A DNA stretch of 64,000 nt from Nannocystis sp. (GTDB taxonomy: Bacteria > Myxococcota_A > Polyangia > Nannocystales > Nannocystaceae). Both the position numbers and the translations under genes were made by a program. The notes under the pieces are model-generated. The model ran no database searches. It was not told the DNA's origin and saw only the letters and a program-made list of their open reading frames with translations. Positions 19,308 through 61,859 of the stretch are shown piece by piece (positions within the stretch are counted from its first letter, which is position 1; each line of letters begins with the position of its first letter). The DNA lies in NCBI GenBank assembly GCA_016712315.1, contig JADJRG010000022.1, positions 994,522-1,058,521 on the forward strand, given 5' to 3'.

Positions 19308-19582
19308 TGACTCCTCCTTGAGCGCCCCTCTGTGCCTTCCCGCAGGAACGCTATCACGATCTCGCGCATGAAGTAGAGCCGCCGGCCGACCCGGAGCGAG
19401 CCCGGGAGTTGGCCCCGGTAGACGCGATCGTAGACGGCGCGGCGGGAGCAGTGGAGCCAACCGGCGAGCTCGTCTGGGGTCATCAATGGTGACTCGCGAC
19501 GAGGTTCCGCCGCGGCTTGTCTTCCTCCAACCTGTCCCACCGTCCCCCTCCTCGAGCCGGGGCGAGGCCCGGCATGATCCAA
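19304..19582 (-). CDS. xis: Excisionase/AlpA-family HTH DNA-binding protein (copy 1)
   Basis: LMTPDELAGWLHCSRRAVYDRVYRGQLPGSLRVGRRLYF = Xis/AlpA/MerR-like wHTH; ATGA overlap with int; true start may be ATG at 19483. Confidence 0.7.
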   Translation of the reverse strand: MDHAGPRPGSRRGTVGQVGGRQAAAEPRRESPLMTPDELAGWLHCSRRAVYDRVYRGQLPGSLRVGRRLYFMREIVIAFLREGTEGRSRRSQ

Positions 19583-21379: not shown

Positions 21380-21709
21380 CCGAAATACCAGACTAGTCGC
21401 GCATATTCACTCATGGGAAAACGTCAATAATCTCAGTAGCTTCATTGAAATTCGCAAATGCCCATGGCGATTACGCGACCGTGACGCAGAGACTCGTGCT
21501 GTGCCTGGTGCAGACAGACCCCCATATGCGCGATAACGGAGGACTTCCTCGCTCTGGCGATGCTCAATCTCCTCTGGTAGCTTGCCGAGACACCGTCACC
21601 TAGCGACACCCAGATAGCTACCGCAGGTAGATGGACTTCGTGCGCGTCTAGTACGACAAGGCCCGGCGTGTGGGCCCGTCGGGGCTTCTTGAGGGTATGG
21701 AGAACGAGC
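21380..21709 (+). promoter_or_regulatory. Lower-G+C upstream region and RBS of tcA
   Basis: Visibly AT-richer 330 bp with no convincing ORF; GGAGAA 3 nt upstream of ATG 21710 (spacing counted from the numbered sequence). Confidence 0.4.
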
Positions 21710-27700: not shown

Positions 27701-30700
27701 GCAGCGGAGAGCCAGGCTCTGACGCCGATACCCGTCAACCAGATCCTCGCTGGCGGCGCGGCCGCGGCGAACGCCCACTCCTGGGTGAAGGGCTTCAAGG
27801 CCAACGTGGGCCCCAAATTCAGGGTCTCGGCGCTCTACCACCCGCATGCAGCCTTCTTCATCGAGCAGGTCCGCAAGTACGGCGTCGACGGTCTCCTGGC
27901 GCCCGTAGGGAATGATCTGGTCTTCCAAGACCTCAACGACCACATCGATCAAGTATACGTACCGACGCCGAACGAGTGCGTTGTAAAACCCTACCCGACG
28001 GGCGACATCGACTTTCTCTTCGGGGGTTCGTATAGCGTCTACAACTGGGAGCTTTTCTTCCACGCCCCGATGTATATCGCCGACCGGTTGATGGCCGAGC
28101 GGCGCTTCGCCGAGGCCCAGCGGTGGCTCCACTACATCTTCAACCCCACGAGGACACCGTCGCTCGTCGCCGAGAGCGACTGCAAATATTACTGGAGGAT
28201 TAAGCCCTTCCGTGTGGCGGCAGCGCACATGTCGATCGACGAACTCTTGGAGCTCCTCCACTATGAGGGCGACGACGCGTTCAAAATCGCACGACGCGAG
28301 GACCTCGAGGCCCAGATCGACGCGTCCCGCACCGATCCCTTCCGCCCGCACTTGATCGCGCGGATGCGGCCCACCGCGTATATGCGCGCGGTCGTGATGA
28401 AATACCTCGACAACCTTATCGCCTGGGGCGATGATCTATTTCGCCAGGACACCCTCGAGAGTAACAACGAGGCGCTCCTGTACTACGACCTCGCCTTACA
28501 GATCCTCGGGAAGCGCCCCCGCAAGCTCGACGCCCGCGAGCGCCCTGACCGCACCTTCTTCGAGGCTTGCGCGGAGAACGACGGCTTCATCGACGACTTC
28601 TCGAACTTCATGGTGCAGCTCGAGAACAAGGTCCTCGGCGTTAAGGGCGGGGTGGTGAAGCAAGCGCTCGTTCTCGACTTCAAGGCTCAAGACAATCAAC
28701 AGAAGGTGACGCCTGGTGTGTACCAGTTCGCCTACATCGCTCCAGAGAAGAGTCAGACTCTCAACGAGCAAGCCAAAAAAGATCCGCCGAAGCCCCCTTT
28801 CATGAGCGTGTATCCGTTTACGGCCGGGGCGCCTGACGCCGATCCGGTCAGATCGGAGCTTTACTTCTGCGTCCCCCCGAACGGGAAGCTCCTCGGGTAC
28901 TGGGACATCGTCGCCGACCGCTTCTTCAAGCTGCGCCACTGCCTCAACCTCGATGGCGTCCGCCGCGAGCTCCCGCTCTACCAGCCGCCGATCGACCCCG
29001 CTCTGCTGGCGAAGGCCGCCGCTCAGGGGATCGACATCGGTACGGCGATCAGCAACCTGGGAGCTCCACTCCCACACTACCGCTTCTCGATCCACCTCGG
29101 GATCGCCAAGGAGTTCGGGAGCCAGGTGAGCGCGCTCGGAGGAGCGCTGCTCCAAGCGCTAGAGAAGCGTGACGCCGAAGCGCTGGCGCTCCTGCGCGCT
29201 GGCCAAGAGCTGAAGATGATGAGCTCGGTGCGCAAGATCCGGGAGACCGCCCTCGACGAGTCGACGGAGAACATCGCCGCCCTGCGCGCCGGTCGGCACA
29301 TCGCGGAGGAGCGGCTGAAATACTACCAGAGCCGCGAGCGGATGAACGCGCTCGAGGAGGCCGAAGTCAAGCTGCAGAGGAACTCGCTCATCTTAGATGC
29401 GGTCAGCCTCGGTTGCACCGCGCTCGCCAGCATCTTGGCGTTCCTACCTCAGATCAAAGTCGGCGTCCGCGGTTTTGTCCCGAGCTTCGACGCGGAGATC
29501 GGCGGTCAGCAGCTATCGACGGCTCTTCACATGATTGGGCAGTCGACCAGCGGCGGTGCGTCGATCAATCGGGCCAGGGCCGGTATGACGCTCACACAGG
29601 CGTCGTACGACCGGCGAAAGGAGGACTGGGATTTTCAGGCCCGACTCGCGCAGAAGGATATCGCCCAGATCGACCGTCAGATCACTGCCGCCGAGATCCG
29701 CAAGGCGATCAGCGAGATCGAGCTGAAGAACCACGACCAGCAGGCGGCTGACGCCGCAGAGGTGCTGGAGACCATGCAGAGCAAGTTCACGAACACCGAG
29801 CTCTACGCGTGGATGTCCGGCGAGCTGAGCACGCTCTACTTCCAGGTGTACCAGCTCGCCGTTGATCTCGCTCGCCGGGCGGAGCGCTGCTACCGCTACG
29901 AGCTAGCGATCGACGACGGCGACGTCAGCGACTTCATCTCGTACGGCCACTGGGATAACCGCCGCAAGGGTCTCCTCGCCGGTGAGCGCCTGGCGCAGGA
30001 TCTCCGGCGCATGGAGGCGGCCTACTACGAGAAGAACCGCCGCGAGTACGAGCTCACCAAGCGCGTCTCGCTCGCGTCGCTCGATCCGGTCGCGCTCGTC
30101 GCCCTCCGCAAGACCGGCGCCTGCCACTTCTTCCTGCCCGAGGCGATCTTCGACCTCGATCACCCGAGCCACTACCTGCGCCGGATCAAGATGGTCGGGG
30201 TCTCGGTGCCAGCAGTCACCGGATCGTTCGGGAGCGTCGGTGCGACGCTGACCTACGAGTCGGGAGCGATCCGTCGCGAGCCCGACATCGAGCTAGAGCT
30301 GGCGATGATCCCTTCCGTCCAGTCGATCGCGGTGAGCACGGGTCAGGACGACGCGGGCCTCTTCGAGCCGAACCTACGCGATGAGCGCTACCTTCCCTTT
30401 GAGGGCAAAGGCCTCGTCCAGAGCTCCTGGCGCCTCTCGCTCCCGTCCAAGGTCCGCAGCTTCGACTACGAGACGATCGCCGATGTCATCTTGACGATCC
30501 GGTACACCGCTCGCGAGGGCGGTGATGCCTTCGGTAGCCTGGTCCAAGATGGCCTCCCGGCCGCGCTCGCGGGGATGGAGCGCGCCGACGGCGAGGCGGT
30601 TAAGGGCACCGGGCAGGTCCGCATCTTCTCCGCCCGCGCCGAGTTCCCGGAGGCGTGGCGGACCTTCGTCACCGCCGGGGCCGATGAAGGGGCGGCCGAG

Positions 30701-31063
30701 TTGGAGCTCGATCTGTCGGAGGAGCGCTTCCCGCACCCGCAGGAGCCCGTTGCGCGCACGATCGAGTTTGCGGCGTTCTTCGTCCGCTGGCGGCCGGGCG
30801 ACGACACGATCCCGACGCTCGAGGCCCACCTCGTCGGGGCGGAGCTGAATGGCCCCGGCGTCACCGAGGAGGGGCTCACCTTCGCCGCGTACAAGGCTGG
30901 CCAGCCAGCGTCGTACCCCGAGTACCTGTGGTTCGCTGCGACGACGCCGCTGACCAGCGAGCCAGGGACCTTCACCCTCTCGGTGACGACAGGCTGGCCA
31001 GTAGGCAAGGATCCCGACGACATCCTCGTCCTGATTCAGTACCGCGTCGGCGCGGAGCCGTGA
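21710..31063 (+). CDS. tcA: Tc toxin complex subunit A (TcA/TcdA-like), 3117 aa
   Basis: Hallmark TcA linker/pore-domain segment WEANRKIFLYPENWVLPELRDDKSP...SQADATEESVENAYIRYLEGLHEIARLEICGTYHE (cf. Photorhabdus TcdA1 LANRQVLFYPENYIDPTLR...SQSQLNADTVEDAFKTYL...YHD); size and position immediately upstream of tcB/tcC. Confidence 0.9.
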   Translation: MSLSLYGQVTDIQTSDAVENATVTLVDPITDTILHITTTSVGAAVPGGYFTFEVTFQQMLEIMGGNHHRTVTFKVYDGVVFLGCQDKLISALTFRGTETIEVEVDSSYTPPEGNFLYNVAGKVVEVDGTPIAGVDVKVYHKKMATETLLETEQTASDGRFLVRYEGPPGAHPDQASIDIIVRCYDDEELVASSEKITNPRWDLSLILVRDNETLRGKPSIVSYMDALDPLLDGVAYHELDADQVGYLSAKTGFDAGLIATIARAHRLSEALAIDAEAFYGIAHAGFPLSTNAVVSLDAETVTSALMRAIADNAISSSVEADITSITSALAAARLDHAVPASDPQTTTLGSVLTAASLTSGLPRSFAEAYLSHIGTIEEFWEDLRADTENFGDAVVDTIQFTLQVGTLTASHAPLVKLLSQMRVSDDFSVAAELAQYDDQDWIDLLDEEVDSSPVSTPAGIPGADETERRANYGRAISRMVEDLYPSAHVAYHLPGGAATSDVAGFVIQNPGFSFARTSIDDFLETAEGLPPEPEDLDALRQDLLKIQRVFNIAPRFGRTSAVGALLEGGIVSARQIRMMGLASFKAIYASALGGEDVAASIYDKADKVASTTLAAFTQMRKEFVFPSTNVITTPGCGDPDLAAIFGSLDYCACRHCDSVHGAAAYFVEIMNFLRPGGDETVLNKLIARRPELMHVKLNCENADTPLPAIDLVNEVLERAVLQHHSEDPHTNPATWPQTTWSGPDLLAHPEKIYTDVYDTFLSDDEGACFPWILPFDLGLSEARIYLTHLGVSRIALQDAFEWFDGLGEDEIYRIDERLGLSPSQGSIVRRTNEAIDLWHLWGFASAGTWIDQINRVETFLERSELSFEGLQALLRTDLLSDVKIVYDEPCTLKDAELRLIADPEEPGLDTTKLEKLVTVFRVGRALGWSNFEVDMVMRGLGLTFAQPVDEELEVLAHFVRVRRQYPRLPLAEVLSWWAPLDTRAPAEGVFSFYEEVVRPNTREPEFRVGQIDANELKLVDVKGSLLGILQVDEASLGAAMAATGLTDGSSLNRANLSKLYRVASLARATSLRVPDLVTLVNYREALKEGSPGPFDGAPDAPVRDLLAVAADVRTSGLTAAALDFVLRDQASERFGASAADVTRALLDVITAQQASDADHEAHLPPADLPARERLAELLARLYADEELESALGLIDTKIPLDATGPQAVAARDALFGFLTIDGAAYVELGKAFDEAAAPDARAVLAVPELSEHLRRLARDRAAVRTISTSLDLEPADASALLESYVHDPLEELDPSRPALDVLTDDGLVAAFNPIDDAELLKSESFPKVFLEREGLPEPARLYRALTKVALVIRTLRFSPGLLRWLLAVAPEASVEILDLTQLPAAGAADSLVYAAYTGWGWLRRAIDLRDRVLGAPEDLVDLLGLIFAETFVKATTLSSLANSAGWDITMLSTFETHLDLSQEDFQTLEGPLALADALAVSKRVGVDPATLHTWATTVATTAQAAEIKGAAQAKYSPAAWPSVAEPLRDRLREQQRDALAQYLVPRLSGVGDRDDLLAHFLMDPEVSACGKTSRLLFATSAVQLFIQRALMGHEDDVVLSDEHSEEWVWMKRYRVWEANRKIFLYPENWVLPELRDDKSPLFRKLEEEISQADATEESVENAYIRYLEGLHEIARLEICGTYHEVERTSKGEVVVDRLHVFGRTHDDPSKVFYRQRIDDAYWTPWEEVPFQIEARGVLPIMVNRRLMLIWPKFGMRPTDTKKQPNTGTSERFVEISLMWSERQKDGWSGVKTSRDVTLDWSDVISGLGEANSRNIFSKYYLASEIGSGGEIVVRTARLVHETNPPTFYYPRPFIYDSLHDTFILINESIMDQPALNEDGLTGDAPTPYDLTIRHQAFTAKSVPGGLKLPIRNSVDWQLDWSPKIINTPSRVAVTFPRQTRGMDSHQPFTYEDDSVGLYLRRVDPPTAMPTPDIPRNGVDPTTAGDTSFVPYVGLVVGAAESQALTPIPVNQILAGGAAAANAHSWVKGFKANVGPKFRVSALYHPHAAFFIEQVRKYGVDGLLAPVGNDLVFQDLNDHIDQVYVPTPNECVVKPYPTGDIDFLFGGSYSVYNWELFFHAPMYIADRLMAERRFAEAQRWLHYIFNPTRTPSLVAESDCKYYWRIKPFRVAAAHMSIDELLELLHYEGDDAFKIARREDLEAQIDASRTDPFRPHLIARMRPTAYMRAVVMKYLDNLIAWGDDLFRQDTLESNNEALLYYDLALQILGKRPRKLDARERPDRTFFEACAENDGFIDDFSNFMVQLENKVLGVKGGVVKQALVLDFKAQDNQQKVTPGVYQFAYIAPEKSQTLNEQAKKDPPKPPFMSVYPFTAGAPDADPVRSELYFCVPPNGKLLGYWDIVADRFFKLRHCLNLDGVRRELPLYQPPIDPALLAKAAAQGIDIGTAISNLGAPLPHYRFSIHLGIAKEFGSQVSALGGALLQALEKRDAEALALLRAGQELKMMSSVRKIRETALDESTENIAALRAGRHIAEERLKYYQSRERMNALEEAEVKLQRNSLILDAVSLGCTALASILAFLPQIKVGVRGFVPSFDAEIGGQQLSTALHMIGQSTSGGASINRARAGMTLTQASYDRRKEDWDFQARLAQKDIAQIDRQITAAEIRKAISEIELKNHDQQAADAAEVLETMQSKFTNTELYAWMSGELSTLYFQVYQLAVDLARRAERCYRYELAIDDGDVSDFISYGHWDNRRKGLLAGERLAQDLRRMEAAYYEKNRREYELTKRVSLASLDPVALVALRKTGACHFFLPEAIFDLDHPSHYLRRIKMVGVSVPAVTGSFGSVGATLTYESGAIRREPDIELELAMIPSVQSIAVSTGQDDAGLFEPNLRDERYLPFEGKGLVQSSWRLSLPSKVRSFDYETIADVILTIRYTAREGGDAFGSLVQDGLPAALAGMERADGEAVKGTGQVRIFSARAEFPEAWRTFVTAGADEGAAELELDLSEERFPHPQEPVARTIEFAAFFVRWRPGDDTIPTLEAHLVGAELNGPGVTEEGLTFAAYKAGQPASYPEYLWFAATTPLTSEPGTFTLSVTTGWPVGKDPDDILVLIQYRVGAEP

Positions 31064-31081
31064 GCGAAGGAGACGAAGGCG

Positions 31082-51403: not shown

Positions 51404-51736
51404 CTAGGTCGCCATCGAGGTCCGCTCGGCGTTGCCGTACTCCTCGGTCCCGGTGACCTCGCTCGGACACTCCCAGGTCGACGGCCCGCCAGCGCACGGC
51501 CCCTCGAGGAGCTTGACGAGGCGAGCGAGCCGATCAGGGTCGGCCCGCCAGTGCTTGAGCGCGGCCGCGCGGGTCGTCGATTGATCACCCATCGGGCCCT
51601 CGAAGTAGAACTCAGCCTCCATGAGCTTGCCGAGCGCTGTGAAGTCCTTCGCCTTGGCCGCGGCGAGGATGTCTTTGACCAGGCGCGCGCGCCACGGCCT
51701 CGCATCGGTGCAGCCGCTGCACGCTGGGGTGTTCAC
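51404..51736 (-). CDS. Hypothetical protein
   Basis: 110-aa ORF; N-terminus may be chimeric at the IS91-fragment junction. Confidence 0.3.
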   Translation of the reverse strand: MNTPACSGCTDARPWRARLVKDILAAAKAKDFTALGKLMEAEFYFEGPMGDQSTTRAAALKHWRADPDRLARLVKLLEGPCAGGPSTWECPSEVTGTEEYGNAERTSMAT

Positions 51737-52643
51737 GGCGGTGCAGCGCTTCCGCAGCGACCTCGGCCTCTACGTGCATCTGCACTGTCTCGTCACGGAT
51801 GGCGCCTTCGAGCAGGCCGGCGAAGGCCTGCGCTTCCTGCCCGCGCGGGCGCCGACACCGCAGCGCATGACGGCCGCGCTCGCGCAGGTCCACAAGGCCG
51901 TCGCCGCCGCCGCCGACGCCGAGGACGACGACGACGCCCTGGACCTGGACCCCGCCCTCGCCGCGTGCGTGCAGCTCGCGCTTGTCGGCCCGCACGCGCT
52001 CCCACCGCAGGAGCCCGCGGCGCGGCCGTCGCTGACGCTCTCCGCGTTCGGCATGCACCTGCACGCCGCGACCACCGTCGACGGCCGCGACCGCAAGCAG
52101 CTCGAGAGGCTCTGCCGCTACATGTTGCGGCCGCCCTTCGCCCATGACGCCGTCAAGGTGCTGCCCGACGGCCGGGTCCGCGTCCTCTTCAAGGCTCCTT
52201 GGCGCAGCGGCGTCGCCCACGCCGACATGGCCCCGGACAAGTTCCTCGCCCGCCTCTGCGCGCTCGTGCCTCCTCCGGGCTTTCACATGCTCCGCTACTT
52301 CGGGGTGTTCGCGAGCCATCATCACCTCCGCGCCCGCGTCATCCCACCCGCCGCCGCGATGCCCGAGCTCCAGCTCGCGCTCGACCTCACCGCCGCCGCG
52401 AACGACACCTCCAGCTCGCTGACCGACGCCTCGCCTCGGCCACGTCGGCTCGGCTGGGCGAAGCTCCTGGCCCGGGTCTTCGCCGTCGACGTCACGGTCT
52501 GCCGCAAGTGCGGCGGCCGCATGCGCGTCCTCGAAGTCGTCTCCGACCCCGACGACATCGCCCGCGTGCTCCACGGCGCCCGCGCTCCACCGCCGCCACC
52601 GCGGCCCCATCCACCGGGCCAAGTCTTGTTGTTCACCGGCTGA
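51720..52643 (+). pseudogene. N-terminally truncated IS91/ISCR-family (HUH, rolling-circle) transposase
   Basis: LGLYVHLHCLVTDGAF...HMLRYFGVFASHHHLRARV...LLARVFAVDVTVCRKCGGRMRVLEVVSDPDDIARVL resembles the Y2/C-terminal part of IS91-family TnpA; no N-terminal Zn-binding domain. Confidence 0.5.
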
Positions 52644-52965
52644 CCGCGCGCTCCTCGCGTCGCGCCCGGCGGCTCCTTGCCGTTCCCCGGACGGAGAGAG
52701 TTCTAGCTGGGAAACGACGTGTGTTGTCACACGAGAATCCTGCGAGGCGGCCTGCGGACCGCCCGAAAGGCGGAGAAATCAGCCTTCCAGGCCCCTCCTG
52801 CGCGGATGCCGCGAGAGCCCAGTACCCGGCCGCCGGACCAAAATCTGGCTTTGAACCTCTTAGGCGCCCAGGACCTCGCCAAAGTCTCCCGGCCGCGGGC
52901 TCCCCGCTGCTTACCTGCGCGCTCCGTACTCACCCGCGCGCTCAAATTCCCACTTCAAAACGCTT
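52620..52965. repeat. Putative IS91-like 3'-terminal segment (copy 1)
   Basis: Begins at tnp stop with GTCTTGTTGTTCACCGGCTGACCGCGCG and ends with a 110-bp block identical to 54128-54238. Confidence 0.6.
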
Positions 52966-53361
52966 AAGCGCGGCCAGGGAAGCCGAGCTCGCCGAGCAGC
53001 AGCAGGCTGACGGCGGGCGCGGCCGGAGCGGGGGCCCGGGTGTCCCAGCCTCTGCCGCGCTCGGTGGCGCAGGCGAGCATGAACATGGCCGAAAAGACAG
53101 ATGCCAGCGAGGGCCAGGCCGCGCGCCGGGAGCGGACAGACGGAGCATGCTGCGGTGCGAGGGCCACGTCGGGCGCCGAGCGTATCATGGCCGGCCGGCG
53201 CGCCGCGGCCGGGTGCGGCGGGTGAGGTCGCCGAGGCCGCGAGGCGAAGGTAAATGGCGGCGAACGGCGAGCTTTCGCACGGGATCGCGGGACGGGGGCG
53301 CTTGCACCCGTGGAGGCGCTCGGGCAATGCTTGCCGTGACATGTCCCATCTGCTCCTGTCG

Positions 53362-53950
53362 ATGAGGGTCAACGGCGAGCCGGTGCAGGTCGCCGCGCCG
53401 GCGCACCACACCCTGCTGGAGGTGCTGCGCTACAAGCTCGACCTCATCGGCGGGACGATCGGGGCGTCGCCGGCCTACAGCTTCACGGCCCACCTGGCCG
53501 AGGTCCTGGTCGACGCGGAGACCGGCATCGTCGAGGTGAAGACGATCTGGGTCGCGCACGACTGCGGCAAGGCGCTGAGCCGCAGGATCGTCGAGGGCCA
53601 GATCGAGGGCTCGACGTACATGGGCTTCGGCGAGGCGCTGATGGAGGAGCACAAGGTCGACGCCGGGCACCGCGGCGCGCACGCGGGCCCGAGCCTGCTC
53701 GACTACCGGATCCCGACCTTCCTCGACACGCCGGAGATCGCGGCGATGATCGTCGAGGCGCCGGACGCCAATGGGCCCTACGGGGCCAAGGAGTCCGGCG
53801 AGGGGCCGCTTCACTCGAGCATCCCGGCGATCGCCAACGCGATCCACGACGCGGTCGGCATCCGCCTCGACCGCCTTCCCTTCACGCCCCAGCGGGTCCT
53901 GGCCGCGATCCGCGAGCGTGCGCGCCGCGAGGCCGCCGGCGAGCTCTCCA
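53362..53950 (+). pseudogene. Deletion remnant of a xanthine dehydrogenase/CO dehydrogenase-family operon (2Fe-2S subunit N-terminus fused to molybdopterin-subunit C-terminus)
   Basis: MRVNGEPVQVAAPAHHTLLEVLRYKLDL (CoxS/XdhC-like start) joined in frame to ...GIVEVKTIWVAHDCGKALSRRIVEGQIEGS...GPYGAKESGEGPL...AIANAIHDAVGIRLDRLPFTPQRVL (large-subunit C-terminus). Confidence 0.55.
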
Positions 53951-53984
53951 CGGCGCCCGGGCTCCCCCTGCGCCTCCTCCTCTT

Positions 53985-54238
53985 GGACAGGTCCTGTTGT
54001 TCCCCTGACCACGCGCCCCACCGGCGACGTGTTCACCCGCCCGCGCCCCGCTGCCGCCGTCGCTGCCCTTCTCGGGCTCATGGCCGTGCGCTTCCTCATG
54101 CCTCGCCTCACCCCCGGCTTCCCTCGCGCCCAGGACCTCGCCAAAGTCTCCCGGCCGCGGGCTCCCCGCTGCTTACCTGCGCGCTCCGTACTCACCCGCG
54201 CGCTCAAATTCCCACTTCAAAACGCTTAAGCGCGCTGC
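53985..54238. repeat. Putative IS91-like 3'-terminal segment (copy 2)
   Basis: Starts GTCCTGTTGTTCCCCTGACCACGCG; last 110 bp identical to 52855-52965. Confidence 0.6.
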
Positions 54239-54522
54239 CGCGCTCGCTGCCCCTCTCGCTGCCCCTCTCGGGCCCTGGCGGCACATGTCGTCACACGCGC
54301 GCTTGCCCTCCCGCCGTGGACCGTGCAAAAATCCCCCGGCCGCGGACTCCGCCGCAGCTCACTGGGCCGCTCTGTACTCACCCTCGCCCCATCGCCGGCC
54401 GCATCCGGAGCTTATTGTGTGCAAGGGGGAAGCCAGCCTTCCGTCGCCGGCACGTCCGCCGAGGCGCAAGCCTGACCGTGACCCGGCTGCCCTTGCCACG
54501 CTCTAAGAAGAGAGATTTCAGA

Positions 54523-55752
54523 ATGCCTTTCCAGGTAGCATGTCGCCCCGGTGCGGGCCGCGTGATCGCGGATCCGGCGAGTCCTGGTGCAGTGTTGGAG
54601 ATATTCAGCGAGAGCGCGGAGGGCGCTCCGTCTGTCGTGCTGGTGACCGATCCGCCGTACCACCACCGTCCGGCGCAGCGCTTTTCCCAGGATGTCGTGT
54701 TCTGCTATGTCGCGGGCGAGCAGACCGTCGCCGGGGTGGGCCGTTTCGTTGCCGGAGAGCTGCGCTGGGTTCGAGCGGGCGCTGACAGCGGCGCGGCGAC
54801 GGCTGGGCCGCAGGGGGTATCGTGGTGGGTGATCTCGGCCGCCACAGCGCTACGGCCCCGGGCCGAGTCGTCGGTTGAGGTCGCGCCGAGCCGCTGCCTG
54901 CCTGCGTTCACGGCGCCCATTGACTGGCCGGCGATCGACGACGCGATCTCGCGCTGCGGCGCGGCCGTTGTCCGCGGCCTGATCTCAGCGGATCTCGTTA
55001 AGCGAATCAACGGGGAGGCCGACGCGTGGCTCGGCAGGCACTCCAGCACCGGGCTCCCGTCTGCGAGCTCTGAGGAGCATAACGACTTCCTGGGTCGTCG
55101 GACCCGGCGGATCCACGGTCTGTGCAGCAAGCTTCCGTCCGCACCCCAGCTGATCGGGCACCCTGAGGTCGTCGCGTGGGCCGAGCGCATGCTGCTCCCC
55201 AGAGCTGCGAGCGTGCTGCTCAACTCCGGGGAGCTCATCGAGCTTGGACCGGGTGAGAAGGCCCAACCGCCGCACCGCGACACCGAGGCGTGGCATCGGA
55301 TTGAGCGGGGGTTGCACCCGGTGATGGTGAACACCATCATTGCGCTCAGCCGATTCACCCGCGACAACGGCGCGACCTATGTGGCTCCCGGATCGCACAC
55401 CTGGCGTGAGGACCGCGAGCCCGCGGCGGGCGAGTTGCTGCAGGCTGAGATGGAGCCGGGCGATGCGCTGCTGTTCCGCGGTGACGCGATCCACTGCGGC
55501 GGCGAAAACCGCACCGCGGAGGCGCGCCGCGGGCTGTCGCTGAGCTACTGCGCAGGCTGGCTCCGTCCCTATGAGAACAGCCATCTGAACGTCCCCCTCG
55601 CGGTCGCGCGGACGCTGCCGGCCAAGGTTCAGGACCTGCTTGGCTATGCATTGGAAGACGCGCTCGCGGTGGGGGGACGCAGGCTCGGGCTGTACGAAAA
55701 CGGGGACCCTCATGCGGCGCTGGAGCACACAGACCCCGACATGGAGTCGTGA
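54523..55752 (+). CDS. PhyH-family Fe(II)/2-oxoglutarate-dependent oxygenase
   Basis: HRD...H facial triad (PPHRDTEAWH ... GDAIHCGG) in a PhyH-like arrangement; HxD, not HxA/G, so hydroxylase-type; ATG 54523 after a short AT-rich leader. Confidence 0.65.
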   Translation: MPFQVACRPGAGRVIADPASPGAVLEIFSESAEGAPSVVLVTDPPYHHRPAQRFSQDVVFCYVAGEQTVAGVGRFVAGELRWVRAGADSGAATAGPQGVSWWVISAATALRPRAESSVEVAPSRCLPAFTAPIDWPAIDDAISRCGAAVVRGLISADLVKRINGEADAWLGRHSSTGLPSASSEEHNDFLGRRTRRIHGLCSKLPSAPQLIGHPEVVAWAERMLLPRAASVLLNSGELIELGPGEKAQPPHRDTEAWHRIERGLHPVMVNTIIALSRFTRDNGATYVAPGSHTWREDREPAAGELLQAEMEPGDALLFRGDAIHCGGENRTAEARRGLSLSYCAGWLRPYENSHLNVPLAVARTLPAKVQDLLGYALEDALAVGGRRLGLYENGDPHAALEHTDPDMES

Positions 55753-55790
55753 GCCACCGAGCTTGACCACCGCATAGCACTGCCCTTACC

Positions 55791-58349
55791 TTGACTACGT
55801 TCAGTTTTCCAGCCTCACAACGAGCGGTCCTTATCTTCGGCACAACCATATCCCCACTCGGCGGGCCGTCCGTGGCTCTTGGCGCGCCCGGGCCGCGCTG
55901 CGATCGGTCGACGGAGGAGCCGTCCCTCTCGGACTGCTTTCTGAACGTGGCGACCCGGACCTCCCATGCGCTGGCCGTGATGTCCGCACGGGGCAACCTC
56001 GACTACGGCGAACTGCTGCGGCGGGCCACGACGGTGGCACAGGCCCTGCAGCGGCAGGGCGTGGGCCGCGGTACCCTGGTCGGTCTGTTCCTGCCGCGCT
56101 CGCTCGAAGCCGTGGTCGCGATCCTGGGGACGCTGCTGGCGGGCGGGGCCTACCTTCCGATCGATCCGGACTACCCGCGGGCGCGCCAGCGCTTCCTGAT
56201 CGAGGACTCGCAGGTCAAGGTGATCGTGACGGCGCCGAGCCTGGCGATCCCGCCGCCGGAGCTTGCCGACCACCCGATCGTCGATCTGGATGCGCTGGCC
56301 GGGGAGCTGCCGTCCCCTGGGTTTCAGCCCGTCGAGCTATCCCCGGACGACCTGCTGTATGTCCTGTACTCATCCGGAAGCACCGGGCGACCCAAGGGCA
56401 TCTGCGGGACCCACGGTGCCACCCTGAACCGGCTGCGCTGGGGATATCAGGCCTTCCCGTTCGCGCCGGAGCGTCCGGAAGTGGTCGCCCATCGCTCTTC
56501 GCTGAACTTCGTGGACTCGGTGGTCGAGCTCTTCTCCGGGTTGCTCTGCGGGGTCCCGACCGCACTGCTTTCCTACGACGAGACCAGGTCGCCCAGCCGG
56601 ATGCTTTCGGCGCTGCATCAGGCGCAGGTGACCCGGCTGACCGTGGTTCCCTCGGTCCTCGATGCGCTGCTGCGGACCGCTCCTGAGCTGGGCGCGGCGC
56701 TGCCGCGGCTTACCCTGTGGGCTTGCAGCGGCGAAGAGCTGACGCTGCCCCTGCTGCGCCAGTTCCGCCTTGCCCACAAGCTCGCGACCCTGGTCAACAT
56801 CTACGGCAGCACCGAGGTCACCGCCGACGTGACCTACGCGGTCTTTACACCGGATACGGAGCTTCCGAGCGAGCGGGTCCCCATCGGAATCGCGATGGCC
56901 GGCGCCGAGCTGTCCGTGCTCGATGATCAGCTGCAACCGGTGGCTGACGGGGAAAGCGGGGAGCTGTTCGTCGGCGGGCCGGTGCTGTCGCGCGGCTACC
57001 TGCGGCGCCCGGAGGAGCAGGCCCTGCGCTTCCTTGCGCATCCGCGGCGACCCGGCGAGCAGATCTTCCGCACCGGGGACCGCGTGCGCCGTGGCGAGGA
57101 TGGTCAGCTCTACTTTCTTGGCCGGACTGACAACCAGATCAAGATCCTCGGGATCCGCATCGAGCCCGAAGAGATCGAGCGGACGTTGCTCGCGGCCTGC
57201 CCGGGGCTGAGCCAGCTCGCGGTGGTGGTCAGGGAGACGCCTGGACAGCCGCAGTCACGCCGGCTCTGCGCGTTCTTTGCGCCCGCCCAGTACGATCCGG
57301 AGCTGCTGCAGACCGCGGCCCGGCAGCGGCTGCCGTCCGCGACAATACCCAAGGAGTTCCTGCCGACGAGCGGCCTGCCGCTATTGCCCGGCGGTAAGCT
57401 CGATCGGCGCACCCTGGCCACCTGGGCCAACCATTCCCCCCGCAATGTACAGCCTGCGCAGGAGCCGCGCTCGGACACCGAACGGCGGCTGGCCGCGCTG
57501 TTTGCGACCCTGCTCGGTCAGGCTCCTATCTCTCGGCAAGACTCCTTTATGGCGCTCGGCGGCGGCTCGCTGGCGCTTGCCGAGCTGCTTGACGCGCTGG
57601 ACCGGTGCTTTCGTGCCACGTTCCTGGACAGCGTGCTGGTGTATCGGCAGCCGCTATTCCAGCTGGCTCGCTGGATTGACGAGGGGACCGCCCCCGCGCC
57701 CGAGTCCGAGCCACCGGCGGAGCAGATCCTGTCGCTGTCCACCGTCGATTCAGCGGCTGCGATCCGCTTTGCCGCCGAGGTCGACGCCCAGCGGGAGCCG
57801 CTGACCTTGGTGACGGACTTGAGCCTGGAGGATCAGATCCCCTACGTGTCGCCGATTGTGGCCTGCAGCCTGGCTGATGGCGTGTCGTTTGTGGCCAGGG
57901 ACTGCGGCAGCGGGAAGCTGGTCGGCTTCTGCCTGGCTCATGACTTCTGCAGCCCGGCCGGGGTCGCGTTGGCAGAGATCTCGTCGCGGCTGCGGCCGAT
58001 AGTTCAGATCCTGACCGAGATCGAATCCGAGTATGTGACGCTGTGTGGCCAGCCTGCTCTCGGAGAGGTCGTGCAGCTGTCGCTGACCGGAGTCTCCCCC
58101 GAGATCGATGGCTACGAGCTGGCGCGCCGTCTGGAGCAGCGGACCCTGGACGCGGCGCGGCTGCGCGGCTACCGTCGTGCGCTCACCATCTGCACCAGTC
58201 GCATCACCTCGGTGCTGGCCGAGCGCACCGGCTTTCAACGGCTCTCTGCATTCGACTATGCCACCTACGAAATCGATGGGCAGCGGGTCTTTCAACCGCT
58301 AGCGGCGCGGCATCGCGAGATCGTTCTTTACGTCAAGGATCTATCATGA
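55791..58349 (+). CDS. Stand-alone adenylation-PCP protein with C-terminal GNAT-like domain (NRPS-like)
   Basis: A-domain core motifs (LYSSGSTGRPKG, NIYGSTE, GELFVGGP, PGGKLDRR), PCP motif LGGGSLALAE, C-terminal ~230 aa with GNAT-like GYRRALTICTS...LAERTGF; start uncertain. Confidence 0.7.
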   Translation: MTTFSFPASQRAVLIFGTTISPLGGPSVALGAPGPRCDRSTEEPSLSDCFLNVATRTSHALAVMSARGNLDYGELLRRATTVAQALQRQGVGRGTLVGLFLPRSLEAVVAILGTLLAGGAYLPIDPDYPRARQRFLIEDSQVKVIVTAPSLAIPPPELADHPIVDLDALAGELPSPGFQPVELSPDDLLYVLYSSGSTGRPKGICGTHGATLNRLRWGYQAFPFAPERPEVVAHRSSLNFVDSVVELFSGLLCGVPTALLSYDETRSPSRMLSALHQAQVTRLTVVPSVLDALLRTAPELGAALPRLTLWACSGEELTLPLLRQFRLAHKLATLVNIYGSTEVTADVTYAVFTPDTELPSERVPIGIAMAGAELSVLDDQLQPVADGESGELFVGGPVLSRGYLRRPEEQALRFLAHPRRPGEQIFRTGDRVRRGEDGQLYFLGRTDNQIKILGIRIEPEEIERTLLAACPGLSQLAVVVRETPGQPQSRRLCAFFAPAQYDPELLQTAARQRLPSATIPKEFLPTSGLPLLPGGKLDRRTLATWANHSPRNVQPAQEPRSDTERRLAALFATLLGQAPISRQDSFMALGGGSLALAELLDALDRCFRATFLDSVLVYRQPLFQLARWIDEGTAPAPESEPPAEQILSLSTVDSAAAIRFAAEVDAQREPLTLVTDLSLEDQIPYVSPIVACSLADGVSFVARDCGSGKLVGFCLAHDFCSPAGVALAEISSRLRPIVQILTEIESEYVTLCGQPALGEVVQLSLTGVSPEIDGYELARRLEQRTLDAARLRGYRRALTICTSRITSVLAERTGFQRLSAFDYATYEIDGQRVFQPLAARHREIVLYVKDLS

Positions 58350-58738
58350 GCTCCCTCCCGCACCACAAGGTCTGCACCCGACTGAGAGCCTCCAAGATTC
58401 ACGGCATCGGCGTGTTCGCGATCTGTCCCATCAAAGCGGGGACGATGATCTTCCCGGGGGATCAGACGGATATGATCTGGGTCGACAAGAGCGCGCTTCC
58501 GAATCTGAGCCCGGCCGAGAAGCAGATGTACGCAGACTTCTGCCTGCACCGCGGCGATCGCCTTGGCTGCCCGTCGAGCTTCGACTCCCTGACACCCGGT
58601 TGGTATGTGAACCACAACCCCACCGACCCCAACCTGACGTACTCCCTGCAGGACTACTCGTTCTATGCCGCCCGCGACATCGCCGAAGGGGAAGAGCTGA
58701 CCGCCAACTACCACCTGTACTCGGACAACGTCGTCTAG
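58346..58738 (+). CDS. Small SET-domain protein (putative methyltransferase)
   Basis: GIGVFA...IKAGTMIF, YVNHNPTDPN (NHSCxPN-like), ELTANY (ELxxxY); ATGA overlap with upstream gene. Confidence 0.65.
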   Translation: MSSLPHHKVCTRLRASKIHGIGVFAICPIKAGTMIFPGDQTDMIWVDKSALPNLSPAEKQMYADFCLHRGDRLGCPSSFDSLTPGWYVNHNPTDPNLTYSLQDYSFYAARDIAEGEELTANYHLYSDNVV

Positions 58739-58744
58739 GTACAT

Positions 58745-61195
58745 ATGATCGCCAGCCCAGCCAGTGTGGCGGCCGCCTTCGTCGAGGTCGCGCAGCGCAC
58801 ACCCGCGATGCGCGCCGTTTTCTGTAGCGCGCAATCTCTATCCTTCGGCCAGCTGCAGGCGCGCGCGCTGCGGGTGGCGCAGGGCCTACGTGGCTACGGT
58901 GTGGCACCGGGGACTGGCGTCGTCCTGGCCATTCCGCGCTCGGTCGAGTCCGTGGTCGCAGTCCTCGGGATCCTCTTGGCCGGGGGCTTCTACGTCCCCA
59001 TCGACCCGACCTATCCCGCCGAGCGGCAGCGCTTCATCGCCGCCGACTGCGGGGCCGCGCTGGTCCTGACGGGCGGCGCCCAAGCGGACAGCAGCCCGCT
59101 GTCGGCGGCGCTGCCCCACATCGACATCGGGTCGCTGGAAGCGGCGAACGCCGGGACCGAAGCGCTGGTGCTGCCGCCAGGGGATCCGACGCAGGCCCTG
59201 CTCTGCATCATCTACACATCGGGGAGCACGGGTCGCCCCAAGGGGGTCTGCGTGCGGCAGGCAGGAATGCTGCATCGCTGGCGCTGGGGCTGGCAGCGTT
59301 ATCCCTTTAGCGCGGATGACGTGGTCGCGCACCGCTCCTCCCTCAACTTCCTCGACTCGGCCACGGAGCTGCTCGGGAGTCTGCTGCAGGGGGTGCCGGT
59401 CGCGATCATCCGGCCTGAAGAAGTGGCGGATCTTTCCCGCATGGTGCAGGTCCTCGCCGCGCATCGTGTTACGCGCCTGACCCTGGTCCCCTCCCTGCTT
59501 TCGGCGTTCTTGGGGGTCTATCCCGAGCTCGGTCGGGAATTGCCGAGGATCTCGCTGTGGATCAGCAGCGGGGAGGTGCTGAGCGCAGCGCTGCTTCGCC
59601 GGTTCCGCGCCGCCTGCCCGCATGCGACGCTGCTAAACCTGTACGGCAGCACCGAGATCTCGGCCGATGTGACTTGCGCCGAGTTCACCCCGCAGACGGC
59701 GCTGCCCGAGCGCCGCGTACCCATCGGATCCGCGGTCGCAGGGGCCGAGCTGTGGGTTTTGGGTGAGGATGGCAGCCCCGTGGAGGCCGGTGCTACCGGC
59801 GAGCTGTTCGTCGGCGGGCCGATCCTGTGCCGCAGTTACTGGCAACGTCCGGAGGAAGATCAGGTCCGCTTCGTGTACCCCGGGGTTGCCGGCGGCTCCC
59901 GGCTGTTTCGCACCGGCGACCGCGTCCGCGCGCTGGCCGACGGCCAGCTGGAGTACCTGGGGCGGGTCGACAACCAGGTCAAGGTCAATGGCGTCCGGAT
60001 CGAGCTGGAGGAGATCGAGCTGGTGGTGGCCGCGCTGCTGCCGACGGGAGGACACGCCGCCGCGGTCGCCGTGCCCAGCCCCGCTGATCCAGAGACCCGC
60101 CGACTCTGGCTGTTCGTTGCCCCCGCAGACATCGCGGTCGAGCCCCTGCGAGAGCGCATGAGGGCGCAGCTGCCACCGCCGCTTGTTCCATCGCGCATCA
60201 TGGCCCTGGCAGCGCTACCGCTGGTTCCCAGCGGCAAGTTCGACCGGCAGGCGCTCATCCGCCAGGCGATGGGTATTGAGCAGAGCCCGCGCGCTCAGCC
60301 GGTCGTCCTGCTGCCCGATGAGCAGGAGCTGGCGGCGCTGTACTCGACCCTGCTCGGCATCGCGCCGGTGTCCCGCGAGGACTGCTTTGGCGCGCTCGGT
60401 GGTGACTCGCTGGCGCTGGCCCAGCTGCTGGCCCGGCTGGCGGCCCGCGGCGTCCCGGCCCCGGCGCTGCCGCCGGCGCAGGTGCGGCAGGCGCCCCTGT
60501 GGCAGGTCGCCCGCTGGCTCGATGGCAGGGACCCGGTTCCGGCCGACGTACCCTCCATGTACGAGGTCGTGGCAGCCGAGCAGGTGCCGGAAGCGGCGCT
60601 TGCTCGCTTCGCCGCCGATCTGTTCGTCGCCCGGGAGCCCGTGTGTGTGGCGCTTGGGCTGACGCGGGACGATGTGCTTGCGGCGTTTACCCGGACGGTC
60701 CGTGGTGCGCAGCGCTTGGGCCTGTCGCTGGTTGCTCGCGATCCACATACGGGCGAGCTGTTCGGCCTCAGCCTGGTCCTGGACTGGGCCGACCAGCCGC
60801 CACCGGATCTTGCCGCCGAGTCGCTGCGGGCGCGGCCCTACTGGGCGCTGGTGTACGAGCTCTGCGACGAGTACGAGCGGCAGCTTGCATCTCGGCCGGC
60901 AGTCGGAGAGCTCCTGGACATGGCCCTGGGCGGTGCCGTGCCGACGGTGGACGGGCTCGCGCTCCTGTACGATCTGGACCGCCGCGTCCTGACGGCGGCG
61001 CGCGCCCGCGGCTACCGCGGGGCGGCGACGCTCTGCTTCCACGAGGTGACGCGACACCTGGCCGAGAGGCTCGGGTTCGTCCGGCACACGGCGCGCTCGC
61101 TGACCACCTACGAGTATGAGGGGCGGCGCCTGCTGGAGTCCGCGGCTCCGGTTCACAAGGAGGCGGTCCTTATGGCGAAGGACCTGCGCGATTGA
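58745..61195 (+). CDS. Second adenylation-PCP-GNAT-like protein (paralogue of 55791-58349)
   Basis: IYTSGSTGRPKG, LYGSTE, GELFVGGP, PSGKFDRQ, LGGDSLALAQ, C-terminal GYRGAATLCFHEVTRHLAERLGF. Confidence 0.7.
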   Translation: MIASPASVAAAFVEVAQRTPAMRAVFCSAQSLSFGQLQARALRVAQGLRGYGVAPGTGVVLAIPRSVESVVAVLGILLAGGFYVPIDPTYPAERQRFIAADCGAALVLTGGAQADSSPLSAALPHIDIGSLEAANAGTEALVLPPGDPTQALLCIIYTSGSTGRPKGVCVRQAGMLHRWRWGWQRYPFSADDVVAHRSSLNFLDSATELLGSLLQGVPVAIIRPEEVADLSRMVQVLAAHRVTRLTLVPSLLSAFLGVYPELGRELPRISLWISSGEVLSAALLRRFRAACPHATLLNLYGSTEISADVTCAEFTPQTALPERRVPIGSAVAGAELWVLGEDGSPVEAGATGELFVGGPILCRSYWQRPEEDQVRFVYPGVAGGSRLFRTGDRVRALADGQLEYLGRVDNQVKVNGVRIELEEIELVVAALLPTGGHAAAVAVPSPADPETRRLWLFVAPADIAVEPLRERMRAQLPPPLVPSRIMALAALPLVPSGKFDRQALIRQAMGIEQSPRAQPVVLLPDEQELAALYSTLLGIAPVSREDCFGALGGDSLALAQLLARLAARGVPAPALPPAQVRQAPLWQVARWLDGRDPVPADVPSMYEVVAAEQVPEAALARFAADLFVAREPVCVALGLTRDDVLAAFTRTVRGAQRLGLSLVARDPHTGELFGLSLVLDWADQPPPDLAAESLRARPYWALVYELCDEYERQLASRPAVGELLDMALGGAVPTVDGLALLYDLDRRVLTAARARGYRGAATLCFHEVTRHLAERLGFVRHTARSLTTYEYEGRRLLESAAPVHKEAVLMAKDLRD

Positions 61196-61259
61196 CTTCT
61201 GCCGGCCGCTCCAGACGGGCCTGTTCGAGCCCGGTCCGGGCGCTAGCATCAGAGCGACC

Positions 61260-61705
61260 ATGAGCTTCCGCTACCTGACTCCAAAGGCCGTCATCCGTAG
61301 CAGCCCGCTGGGTGGGCGCGGCGCCTTTGCCACCCAGCCGATCGCCGATGGCGAGCTGGTCGCGGTGTTCGGCGGCCGCGTGAGAGCGAGATCGACTCCG
61401 CCGACTTCATCAACCACTCGTGCGATCCCAACTGCGGCATCCGAGGTCACCTGTTGCTATTTGCCCGGTCCGCGATTGCGATGGAGAATGAGCTGACCTT
61501 TGATTATGGCACGGTCTTTGTCGACCATGGCCGGGGGCGCGTCGAGATGTCCTGCAGCTGCCGGGCTGCCGCCTGCCGCGGCCTCATCACCTCGGAGGAT
61601 TGGCAGGAGCCGGCGTTCCGGCGTCGCCACCGCGGCGACCTGTCCTTTGCCGTGCAGGAGCGGATCGCAGCGGCGTTCCCCGATGGGGAGCACGACCCCG
61701 TCTAA
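61260..61705 (+). pseudogene. Second SET-domain gene, carrying a frameshift near 61380
   Basis: MSFRYL...GGRGAFATQPIADGELVAVFGG (frame 0) then ESEIDSADFINHSCDPNCGIRGHLLLFARSAIAMENELTFDYG (frame 2). Confidence 0.6.
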
Positions 61706-61859
61706 GTCGCGTGCGGCGTCACCTGGGAGGCGGGCGAGGGACTGGTGGGCGTCCATGTCAGCGTGGGCGGGGCTCAGTCGCGGGGCCCGCACGGAACCGG
61801 CTGTAGCTCCCTCCAGGAGGCCTGTGTAGGCGAGGAAGACGCCCGCGATGGCTCTGAGG

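Follow-up and report, generated by a model that had tools for sequence, protein, structure and literature searches.

Introduction

Drosophila Ebony is an adenylation–thiolation (A–T) enzyme in which a C-terminal domain of the arylalkylamine N-acyltransferase (AANAT) fold forms an amide to a free amine (PMC10510592, PMC10531068). Here, we describe a gene cassette that encodes two synthetases of the same architecture in a 64,000-nucleotide stretch of DNA from Nannocystis sp. (GenBank assembly GCA_016712315.1, contig JADJRG010000022.1, positions 994,522 to 1,058,521; the whole stretch is referred to as the window and has a G+C content of ~70%). The cassette occupies positions 54523–61705 of the window and consists of five plus-strand genes in the order PhyH, A1, SETa, A2 and a SETb pseudogene. 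They encode an Fe(II)/2-oxoglutarate dioxygenase of the PhyH family, the two Ebony-type synthetases A1 and A2, which resemble nonribosomal peptide synthetases (NRPSs), and two SET-domain proteins. To our knowledge, Ebony is the sole characterised example of this one-enzyme amide-forming logic.

Bacterial GNAT acyltransferases that depend on a carrier protein have been described, namely SbzI, GdvG/AprG and FeeM (PMC11685415), in which the GNAT fold likewise moves a carrier-tethered acyl group to an amine. These proteins stand alone and belong to other GNAT subfamilies, however, and none is fused to an adenylation (A) domain and a peptidyl carrier protein (PCP) domain. Among SET-domain proteins, BurB of Burkholderia thailandensis converts methionine to S-methylmethionine in the first step of dimethylsulfoniopropionate synthesis (PMC12542666).

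A preliminary description of the cassette, made from its sequence, knew of no NRPS-independent pathway that would fit a PCP-dependent GNAT-like transferase with bacterial SET partners. For the architecture of the synthetases, Ebony is a precedent, found both as a profile match and as the top fold match in the PDB, and carrier-dependent bacterial GNATs are known as well. No description of a bacterial A–T–AANAT enzyme, or of its pairing with SET methyltransferases, was found in the literature searched, the coverage of which was incomplete; the pairing does look undescribed. Judged from sequence, the cassette appears to represent a bacterial branch of the Ebony-type enzymes that is as yet uncharacterised and has new tailoring partners.

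Architecture of the synthetases

A1 is encoded at 55791–58349 (852-residue open reading frame, ORF; A domain at residues ~45–545, AANAT-fold domain at residues ~640–852, nt ~57708–58346) and A2 at 58745–61195 (816 residues; AANAT-fold domain at residues ~600–816, nt ~60542–61192). The two proteins align from end to end with 45% identity over 816 residues. Both match the Pfam AMP-binding family (2.4e-70 for A1 and 1.1e-70 for A2) and pass the amino-acid adenylation model TIGR01733 (345 bits, above the cutoff, for A1). A PP-binding match follows in each (3.8e-5 for A1), and the serine to which phosphopantetheine would be attached lies inside it, as Ser593 of the motif LGGGS in A1 (nt 57567) and Ser555 of LGGDS in A2 (nt 60407).

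In Pfam/NCBIfam searches at E < 0.1, A1 and A2 showed no condensation (PF00668), thioesterase or reductase domain, and their C-termini gave at most a sub-threshold GNAT match in Pfam (a weak Acetyltransf_CG match for A1). More distant homologues of the A domains carry PF00668 or PF00975. The order of A, PCP and C-terminal AANAT-fold domain on one polypeptide of ~820–880 residues, with the last of these replacing the condensation domain, is that of Drosophila Ebony. The earlier suggestion of a GNAT-like fold at the place of the condensation domain was thus borne out by the AANAT profile and fold matches given below, together with the lack of a detectable condensation, thioesterase or reductase domain.

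The synthetases differ from Ebony in being bacterial (Myxococcota, with relatives in Cyanobacteria), in their ~18% identity to it in the transferase domain, in carrying Val or Thr instead of Trp at specificity-code position 239 and in occurring as two tandem paralogues. Their SET, PhyH and major facilitator superfamily (MFS) partners belong to the bacterial loci, and the insect system has none of them.

The start of A1 is ambiguous between TTG 55791 and GTG 55872 because the orthologues align only from residues 32–45, varying by locus. A2 starts 6 nt past the SETa stop codon, and a Nannocystis sp. metagenome-assembled genome (MAG) encodes a protein that is 100% identical to it. Genes of this family are currently annotated merely as 'amino acid adenylation domain-containing protein'.

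The C-terminal domain

Queried as a single sequence against the PDB, the domain gave only weak matches, namely dopamine N-acetyltransferase and the corresponding domain of Drosophila Ebony. A word-indexed search limited to the domain recovered nothing, and the full-length query recovered ~30 proteins of ~800 residues with the same C-terminus. Twenty-two such C-terminal domains were aligned, and the alignment served both as the profile for a PDB search and as input for AlphaFold2.

The profile matched insect Dat/AANAT structures (3.7e-11 to 6e-10), the polyamine acetyltransferase A654L of the chlorovirus PBCV-1 (3.9e-11, in two shorter stretches) and the Ebony condensation domain (PDB entry 6dym; 1.5e-9), and the Dat and Ebony alignments span nearly the entire domain. 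The AlphaFold2 model of the A2 C-terminal domain had a predicted local distance difference test score (pLDDT) of 94.3 and a predicted template-modelling (TM) score of 0.89. In a Foldseek search of the PDB its top match was 6dym (E value 4.3e-13, TM scores 0.77/0.80, r.m.s.d. 2.9 Å), followed by the insect AANATs and A654L; generic GNATs and SbzI (TM score ~0.5 to the model) ranked far lower. The domain has the insect-type AANAT fold of the GNAT superfamily. With the insect AANATs (Dat/AANAT1, the Aedes aaNATs and the agmatine/polyamine N-acetyltransferases) and A654L it shares the same GNAT subfamily, in profile (~1e-10 to 1e-11) as in fold. Insect AANATs are stand-alone users of acyl-CoA, whereas the domain of the window lies behind an A and a PCP domain and is presumably fed by phosphopantetheine.

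Two motifs of the insect enzymes, the Glu of (D/R)EPL and C-(S/T)-x-H-x-(S/T), are conserved in the window domain. In the family motif REP(L/V/M) the Glu is nearly invariant and the Pro invariant, and the Glu aligns with that of Dat FFKDEPL; the Glu of the Dat DEPL motif is the catalytic base E47. Dat VLCSSHYS has its aligned counterpart in the motif TICT(H/N/S)R(V/A)T. In A1 and A2 (DGYELAR and DGLALLY), a non-Gly residue takes the place of the second Gly of the Dat segment RGLGIAG, which corresponds to the CoA-pyrophosphate motif of GNATs. From the architecture, the acyl donor of the domain would be the group tethered to the adjoining PCP.

When 1.84 billion cluster representatives were searched exhaustively with the profile, 677 proteins proved to contain the domain (E ≤ 1e-3). 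The majority stand alone and have ~215 residues, and in ~18 of the 150 best the domain is fused behind A–PCP. One protein of 763 residues (P0164) carries the AANAT-like domain at its C-terminus (residues 580–751) and lacks an adenylation domain; judged by eye, the part that precedes it resembles a ketoreductase of a polyketide synthase (PKS) and an acyl carrier protein. If this part is of PKS type, the AANAT-like domain may off-load polyketide lines as well. A protein of 870 residues (P0206) was considered as an animal Ebony reference and rejected, as no 6dym chain was among its 60 best matches listed.

The adenylation pocket

Specificity codes were read from a MAFFT alignment with GrsA, the reference sequence of which reproduces the canonical code DAWTIAAICK. 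The A1 code is VDVTASI..K (Val235, Asp236, Val239, Thr278, Ala299, Ser301, Ile322 and Lys517) and the A2 code is LDTTISL..K (Leu235, Asp236, Thr239, Thr278, Ile299, Ser301, Leu322 and Lys517). An HMMER alignment to LgrA gave Leu at 235 and Asp at 236. In both A domains Asp235 is absent and an Asp stands at position 236, as seen in the LgrA alignment, in the GrsA alignment and in the motifs themselves. The A1 orthologues have VD(A/V)T(T/A)SI and the A2 orthologues (L/V)DTT(I/V)SL, and distant members of the family have VDW(T/V)xSL..K.

Asp235 is kept in all A domains that activate α-amino acids (PMC12283262, PMC11355689). An α-amino acid is thus an unlikely substrate of A1 and A2, as judged from these alignments, because both lack this residue. 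The family codes may be set beside that of β-alanine, VDWVISLADK, to which the consensus of the wider family comes close. With Trp239 missing from A1 and A2, the acid may therefore be something other than β-alanine itself.

Two further ideas on the pocket were rejected. Adenylation domains of the VinN type, which activate β-amino acids, had been thought to shift the Asp by one position; according to the literature VinN keeps the Asp235 equivalent. The loss of Trp239 had been taken to make room for an acid that is methylated by a SET protein before loading, an idea without support because Val239 is also found in lineages without SET genes (P0017 in locus L003 and P0027 in locus L023).

The SET-domain proteins

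SETa (58346–58738, 130 residues) matches Pfam SET at 2.9e-10 over positions 1–104 of the 105-position model. Its ATG overlaps the A1 stop codon as ATGA, an arrangement of translational coupling. The protein carries the motifs HGIGVFA, VNHNP and EELTANY, and the residues Arg12, Gly20, Gly22, Asn89, Glu116, Glu117, Leu118 and Tyr122 are invariant across 23 homologues. An AlphaFold2 model (pLDDT 90) had Schizosaccharomyces pombe Set7, the MLL SET domains and viral vSET as its top fold matches, and SETa is predicted to be a minimal SET fold with the GxG, NH and ELxxxY motifs.

SETb (61260–61705) belongs to another subtype, which is canonical and MLL-like and is marked by the motifs NHSCxPN and ELTFDY and by a cluster of post-SET Cys residues. 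Its intact orthologues have ~169 residues and occur in seven of the loci described below (L001, L004, L007, L012, L026, L030 and L034); one gave a Pfam match of 2.5e-13 and matched the SET and post-SET region of MLL over its full length. By homology the start of SETb is the ATG at 61260, 64 nt past the A2 stop codon.

The window copy of SETb is broken. In a tblastn search with the intact L001 orthologue, residues 1–46 aligned to 61260–61397 and residues 72–168 to 61382–61672 in a different frame. Since the two parts align in two frames with a gap between them, ~25 codons (residues 47–71 of the orthologue) are missing, along with a change of frame at ~61382–61397. The second frame (~61382–61705) still translates to NHSCDPN, ELTFDY and CSCRAAAC.

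The small ORFs are therefore genuine SET domains, as the preliminary description had held, and some of its details needed revision. It had placed an ATGA-coupled SET gene after each synthetase; this stands for SETa, and only the A1–SETa pair is coupled in this way, because SETb begins 64 nt past the A2 stop codon, is of the other subtype and has ~169 residues when intact. Similarly, the disruption that it had located at ~61380 is real, but is more than a simple frameshift because ~25 codons have also been lost.

BurB (PDB entry 9l4t) offers a precedent for a small bacterial SET enzyme in small-molecule metabolism. Its similarity to the SET proteins of the window is weak (E values of 0.005 and 2e-4), and it methylates sulfur, whereas these are presumed to methylate nitrogen; nor is it coupled to an Ebony-type enzyme. 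BurB belongs to the thiotemplate pathway of malleicyprol (bur), and it shows that methylation of a free amino acid by a bacterial SET enzyme can serve such a pathway.

A gene at 3273–3845 of locus L016 that is coupled to a distant SETa homologue was tried as a stand-alone AANAT-like domain and rejected (hhalign probability 0.1, no Pfam match).

Relatives and gene neighbourhoods

Genomes and metagenomes were scanned for related loci (numbered with the prefix L) using an alignment of five A1-type sequences as the query, as the 22-sequence alignment was too diverse. Close relatives were found in Polyangia/Myxococcales MAGs only, many of them redundant. The gene set of the cassette recurs in at least four further arrangement types in Polyangia/Myxococcales MAGs and metagenomes. 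Type I is that of the window (PhyH, A1, SETa, A2 and the SETb pseudogene). The loci L008–L011 (type II) have MFS, A1, SETa, A2, repeats and PhyH; L012/L026 (type III) have MFS, A1, SETa, A2 and SETb; L013/L027 (type IV) have MFS, A1 and SETa only; and the L001-type loci (type V) have MFS, A1, a short ORF, A2, SETa2, SETb and an integrase.

A1 and A2 form separate orthologue lineages, with identities of 57–60% and 49–57% within the lineages compared with 42–45% between them. The A1–SETa pairing is also found in L008–L013, L026 and L027. Every locus of the Polyangia clade that reaches past the synthetase carries one or two SET genes, so that the unit of synthetase and SET protein seen in the preliminary description is indeed conserved. 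An MFS transporter gene lies beside A1 in every Polyangia-clade locus except for the window, and the more distant locus L023 consists of a single synthetase and an MFS transporter with nothing more. MFS, A1 and SETa together would make a sufficient unit because type IV has only these. No amine-supplying enzyme was found among the scanned neighbours of the one-synthetase locus L013.

Relatives outside this clade point to the chemistry. The protein P0139, which falls in the cluster of the Scytonema hofmannii PCC 7110 protein WP_017747295.1, is 38% identical to A1 over 819 residues. In the locus that carries it (L020), a decarboxylase of the ornithine/diaminopimelate/arginine type is followed 4 nt later by the synthetase and then by PanD (TIGR00223, 153.6 bits against a cutoff of 106). 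PanD is aspartate 1-decarboxylase, a source of β-alanine. In locus L022 a PF00282 decarboxylase and an SfmD-like peroxidase adjoin the synthetase, and in five proteins (P0017, P0062, P0071, P0076 and P0085) an N-terminal PF00282 decarboxylase is fused to the A, PCP and C-terminal domains. In Drosophila, the decarboxylase black supplies β-alanine, a second decarboxylase, Ddc, supplies the amine and Ebony joins the two; the PanD and decarboxylase links of the relatives mirror this supply. They therefore suggest the chemistry of a β-alanine-type acyl group and a free amine, with a small exported amide as the product.

Several further features of these loci were recorded. The cyanobacterial operon at 5397–11874 of L020 comprises the decarboxylase, the synthetase (A, T and the C-terminal AANAT-like domain), PanD, a fatty-acid desaturase and an EamA transporter, and is a candidate for a self-contained pathway to a β-alanyl-amine. 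At 12466–12624 of L001, and likewise in L002 and L004–L007, a conserved ORF of 52–55 residues overlaps the A1 stop codon and abuts the A2 start; it matched no family and is not MbtH-like. At 12457–12900 of L008, ~440 nt of short repeats resembling repetitive extragenic palindromic (REP) sequences lie between A2 and PhyH, where other loci have SETb. The integrase of the L001-type loci, located 3′ of the cassette, is distant kin (27–29% identity) of the tyrosine integrases of the window. Genes for Ser/Thr kinases were found close to the cassette at several loci and were considered as components of the system; this was rejected as a probable coincidence because the kinases of different loci are not orthologous.

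The PhyH-family dioxygenase

The gene that precedes the synthetases (54523–55752, a 409-residue ORF) matches Pfam PhyH at 4.7e-26 (92.8 bits against a cutoff of 22, residues 144–337). Its iron ligands are found in His-Arg-Asp at residues 251–253 (His251 and Asp253) and in the distal His324, in agreement with the HxD-type Fe/2-oxoglutarate oxygenase of the preliminary description. The orthologues in L008 and L011 are 73% identical and cover residues 126–401 only, so that the conserved core begins at ~54898. The N-terminal 125 residues (54523–54897) match no Pfam family and have no counterpart in these orthologues. The G+C content at third codon positions (GC3) is coding-like from ~54613. The start at 54523 is plausible and uncertain, because the orthologues align only from residue 126 and the extension matches no family.

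Among solved structures, its nearest relatives proved to be SptF and AsqJ (~1e-30), followed by DhiD, TlxJ, AndA, SwnH, EasH and FtmOx1. With the group of AsqJ, SptF and AndA (~1e-30 to 1e-24) the enzyme shares the HxD...H ligands; these enzymes have fungal alkaloid or terpenoid substrates, and they differ from the window ORF in its additional 125-residue N-terminus. No carrier-dependent halogenase or hydroxylase of the SyrB2 type was among its PDB matches at E < 0.01. Neither an HxA/G motif nor closeness to SyrB2, CytC3 or CurA-Hal was found, the motif being HRD. The PhyH gene is present in two of the five arrangement types (I and II), at differing positions. The comparison with SyrB2 made in the preliminary description was therefore abandoned: hydroxylation on the PCP is without support because the enzyme resembles dioxygenases that act on free substrates, such as SptF and AsqJ, and is patchily conserved.

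Proposed pathway

These data are best read, with a better than even chance, as a pathway of the Ebony type whose product is an exported amide that is N-methylated and in some cases hydroxylated; its genes have here been rearranged, plausibly by IS91-type elements, and lack the transporter. The proposal builds on the architecture, the fold homology, the conserved catalytic-type residues, the missing Asp235 and the conserved neighbourhoods. Its core chemistry follows the example of Ebony and the gene context of the relatives. Each ~820-residue synthetase would adenylate a β-alanine-like acid that lacks an α-amino group and load it as a thioester onto the phosphopantetheine arm of its own PCP. 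The AANAT-fold domain would then pass the acyl group straight to a free amine and release the amide. Condensation, thioesterase and reductase domains would be unneeded, as the acyl transfer to a free amine itself releases the product. A1 and A2 are separate conserved lineages that differ in their pocket residues, and most likely each makes an amide of its own or both acylate the same molecule.

The tailoring and export steps are likewise inferred. The SET proteins would act as N-methyltransferases dependent on S-adenosylmethionine, with a primary amine resembling a lysine side chain as their target, in the building block, in the tethered acyl group or in the released amide. The dioxygenase, being like AsqJ and SptF, would hydroxylate or oxidise the free product in some lineages only, and the MFS transporter would export it.

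Several observations weigh against this proposal. Identity to Ebony 6dym in the transferase domain is 18%, and the nearest sequence relatives of that domain use acetyl-CoA. The bacterial A–T–AANAT family is without any characterised member or known product. In the pocket, the match to the β-alanine code is tentative, position 239 is Val (A1) or Thr (A2) and not Trp, and positions 330/331 can be read as Ala-Asp without gaps or as Val-Thr with the two-residue gap that MAFFT places in the β13–β14 loop, which makes their reading ambiguous. A decarboxylase is absent from the window as well as from its relatives in the Polyangia. PhyH is missing from three of the arrangement types, and in two of them SETb is missing or broken. 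More distant SETa homologues (≤54% identity) are found in unrelated, partly phage-like contexts, from which it follows that the SET genes were recruited to the cassette within the Polyangia, as far as the sequences tell. Finally, the function of the pathway in this genome is uncertain because the cassette is without its MFS gene and has IS91 sequence on its flanks.

State of the cassette and IS91 context

A truncated gene for an IS91-family Y2 transposase, which lies outside the pathway, was found upstream of the cassette at 51621–52643 on the plus strand (Pfam Y2_Tnp, 2.1e-26 at residues 36–233); no N-terminal zinc domain was detected in it by Pfam. It is followed by an IS91-associated repeat block (52864–54387). 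Self-comparison with blastn identified a perfect 109-nt direct repeat (52864–52972 and 54126–54234) and a degenerate third copy (54312–54387); the repeat may be an end of the insertion sequence (IS). The relic of a fused gene for 2Fe–2S and molybdopterin binding, of the xanthine dehydrogenase family, lies between the perfect copies at 53254–~53800 (MoCoBD_2, 2.1e-25 on 53254–54300). Directly 3′ of SETb, 43 nt of an IS91-type transposase gene survive as an inverted relic at 61727–61769 on the minus strand. It is 84% complementary to 52214–52256, and its minus-strand translation AHADM..LARL corresponds to the transposase motif AHADMAPDKFLARL. IS91-derived sequence, noted earlier as IS91-like ends next to the cassette, thus lies on both of its flanks, with the Y2 transposase upstream and the transposase relic downstream.

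No MFS gene lies within the 64 kb window, and PhyH is on the opposite side of the cassette compared with the type II loci. The cassette has been rearranged, since SETb is broken, the MFS gene is missing, PhyH lies on the other side and IS91 sequence is found on the flanks. IS91 activity is plausibly the cause, and the pathway may be only partly functional in this genome.

The strongest competing explanation goes one step further and regards the cassette as a decaying, IS91-rearranged remnant that no longer makes a finished product. We give it a minority chance that should be taken seriously. The internal deletion and frame change of SETb, the lack of an MFS gene, the truncated transposase, repeated IS ends and inverted transposase relic on the flanks, and the displacement of PhyH relative to the L008-type loci, with its unmatched N-terminal extension, would all fit such decay. 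PhyH, A1, SETa and A2 are nevertheless uninterrupted ORFs with conserved motifs and coding-type GC3. Furthermore, SETb and PhyH are dispensable in other lineages, and the lesion in SETb is possibly an error of MAG assembly.

Alternative biochemical readings

The two synthetases might instead form a two-module line, in which the A1 domain acylates the free amino group of a β-alanyl-type unit carried on the PCP of A2 and the A2 domain off-loads the diacyl product onto a free amine. In four of the five arrangement types the distinct A1 and A2 lineages are neighbours that keep one order, and their pocket residues differ consistently, VD(A/V)T(T/A)SI in A1 and (L/V)DTT(I/V)SL in A2. This reading is unlikely: the loci L013 and L027 have MFS, A1 and SETa only and L023 has one synthetase with its MFS transporter, which argues that one enzyme suffices, and both Ebony and the AANATs accept free amines.

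The C-terminal domain could also be an ordinary acetyl-CoA-dependent N-acetyltransferase that is fused to A–PCP and acetylates the tethered amino acid or an unrelated amine, with release from the PCP being brought about otherwise. Its best sequence matches are indeed acetyl-CoA-dependent AANATs and a polyamine acetyltransferase, and the Glu aligned with the catalytic Glu of Dat is conserved, as is the Ser/Thr-rich motif. Such an enzyme would need another route of release, yet no release domain or stand-alone thioesterase is conserved at any locus, and in the minimal loci the fused A–PCP would be without purpose. In the fold search the carrier-protein-dependent domain of Ebony ranked first, and the second Gly of the Dat segment RGLGIAG is replaced. 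We regard an acetyltransferase as highly improbable.

Least probable is modification of a protein, as raised in the preliminary description, with the SET proteins methylating lysines and the synthetases aminoacylating a lysine or the N-terminus of a target: most characterised SET enzymes are protein lysine methyltransferases and several loci have Ser/Thr kinase genes in the vicinity of the cassette, but no candidate target gene is conserved, the relatives are linked to amino-acid decarboxylases and PanD (that is, to small amines and β-alanine), and the most constant neighbour, found beside the synthetase in L023 and at all loci of the clade other than the window, is an MFS transporter, which makes a small molecule the more likely target. 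Myxobacterial genomes are rich in kinases, and the adjacency of kinase genes is weak evidence for this reason.

Implications

If the Ebony-like pathway is correct, the one-enzyme amide logic of Ebony reaches from insects to bacteria, and genome-mining tools gain a new release/condensation domain to recognise. With BurB as the first case, the SET proteins would then be the second, and a different one, of SET-domain methyltransferases that work in the metabolism of small molecules. In predatory myxobacteria, the cassette points to a family of small exported amides that has yet to be characterised, and intact loci are at hand in L012/L026, L001/L014 and L008.

A broader view can be offered tentatively, and we hold it to be possible although doubtful. 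Ebony-type condensation would be a sizeable overlooked bacterial family, with forms in Myxococcota and Cyanobacteria and a PKS-linked form, and the Polyangia would have recruited SET proteins as small-molecule N-methyltransferases. The products would be new exported N-methylated, possibly quaternary (betaine-like), amides of the β-alanyl type, and the family would be a possible source of animal Ebony. The origin of animal Ebony becomes phylogenetically testable.

Other features of the window

A complete toxin complex (Tc, ABC) locus occupies 21581–38462 of the window. Its TcA has 3160 residues with TcA_TcB_BD (1e-102), ABC_toxin_N and a neuraminidase-like domain; TcB, with TcdB middle domains, is encoded at 31372–35037 and a TcC-like RHS-repeat protein at 35034–38462. 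The G+C content of this region falls to 0.55–0.60 at 21–23, 27–29 and 38–39 kb. Two paralogous tyrosine integrases, at 48672–49895 on the plus strand and 18210–19415 on the minus strand, share 73% protein identity. A tandem array with a 16-nt period (51071–51142, 31-nt copies of CCCGACACGCCCGACA...) lies between a Ser/Thr kinase gene (49972–50946) and the IS91 transposase gene. At the end of the window, 62026–63994 contains acidic, highly repetitive ORFs that match no Pfam family, with 18-nt repeats at 62317–62449 and a 93-nt unit repeated three times at 99–100% identity at 63488–63771.

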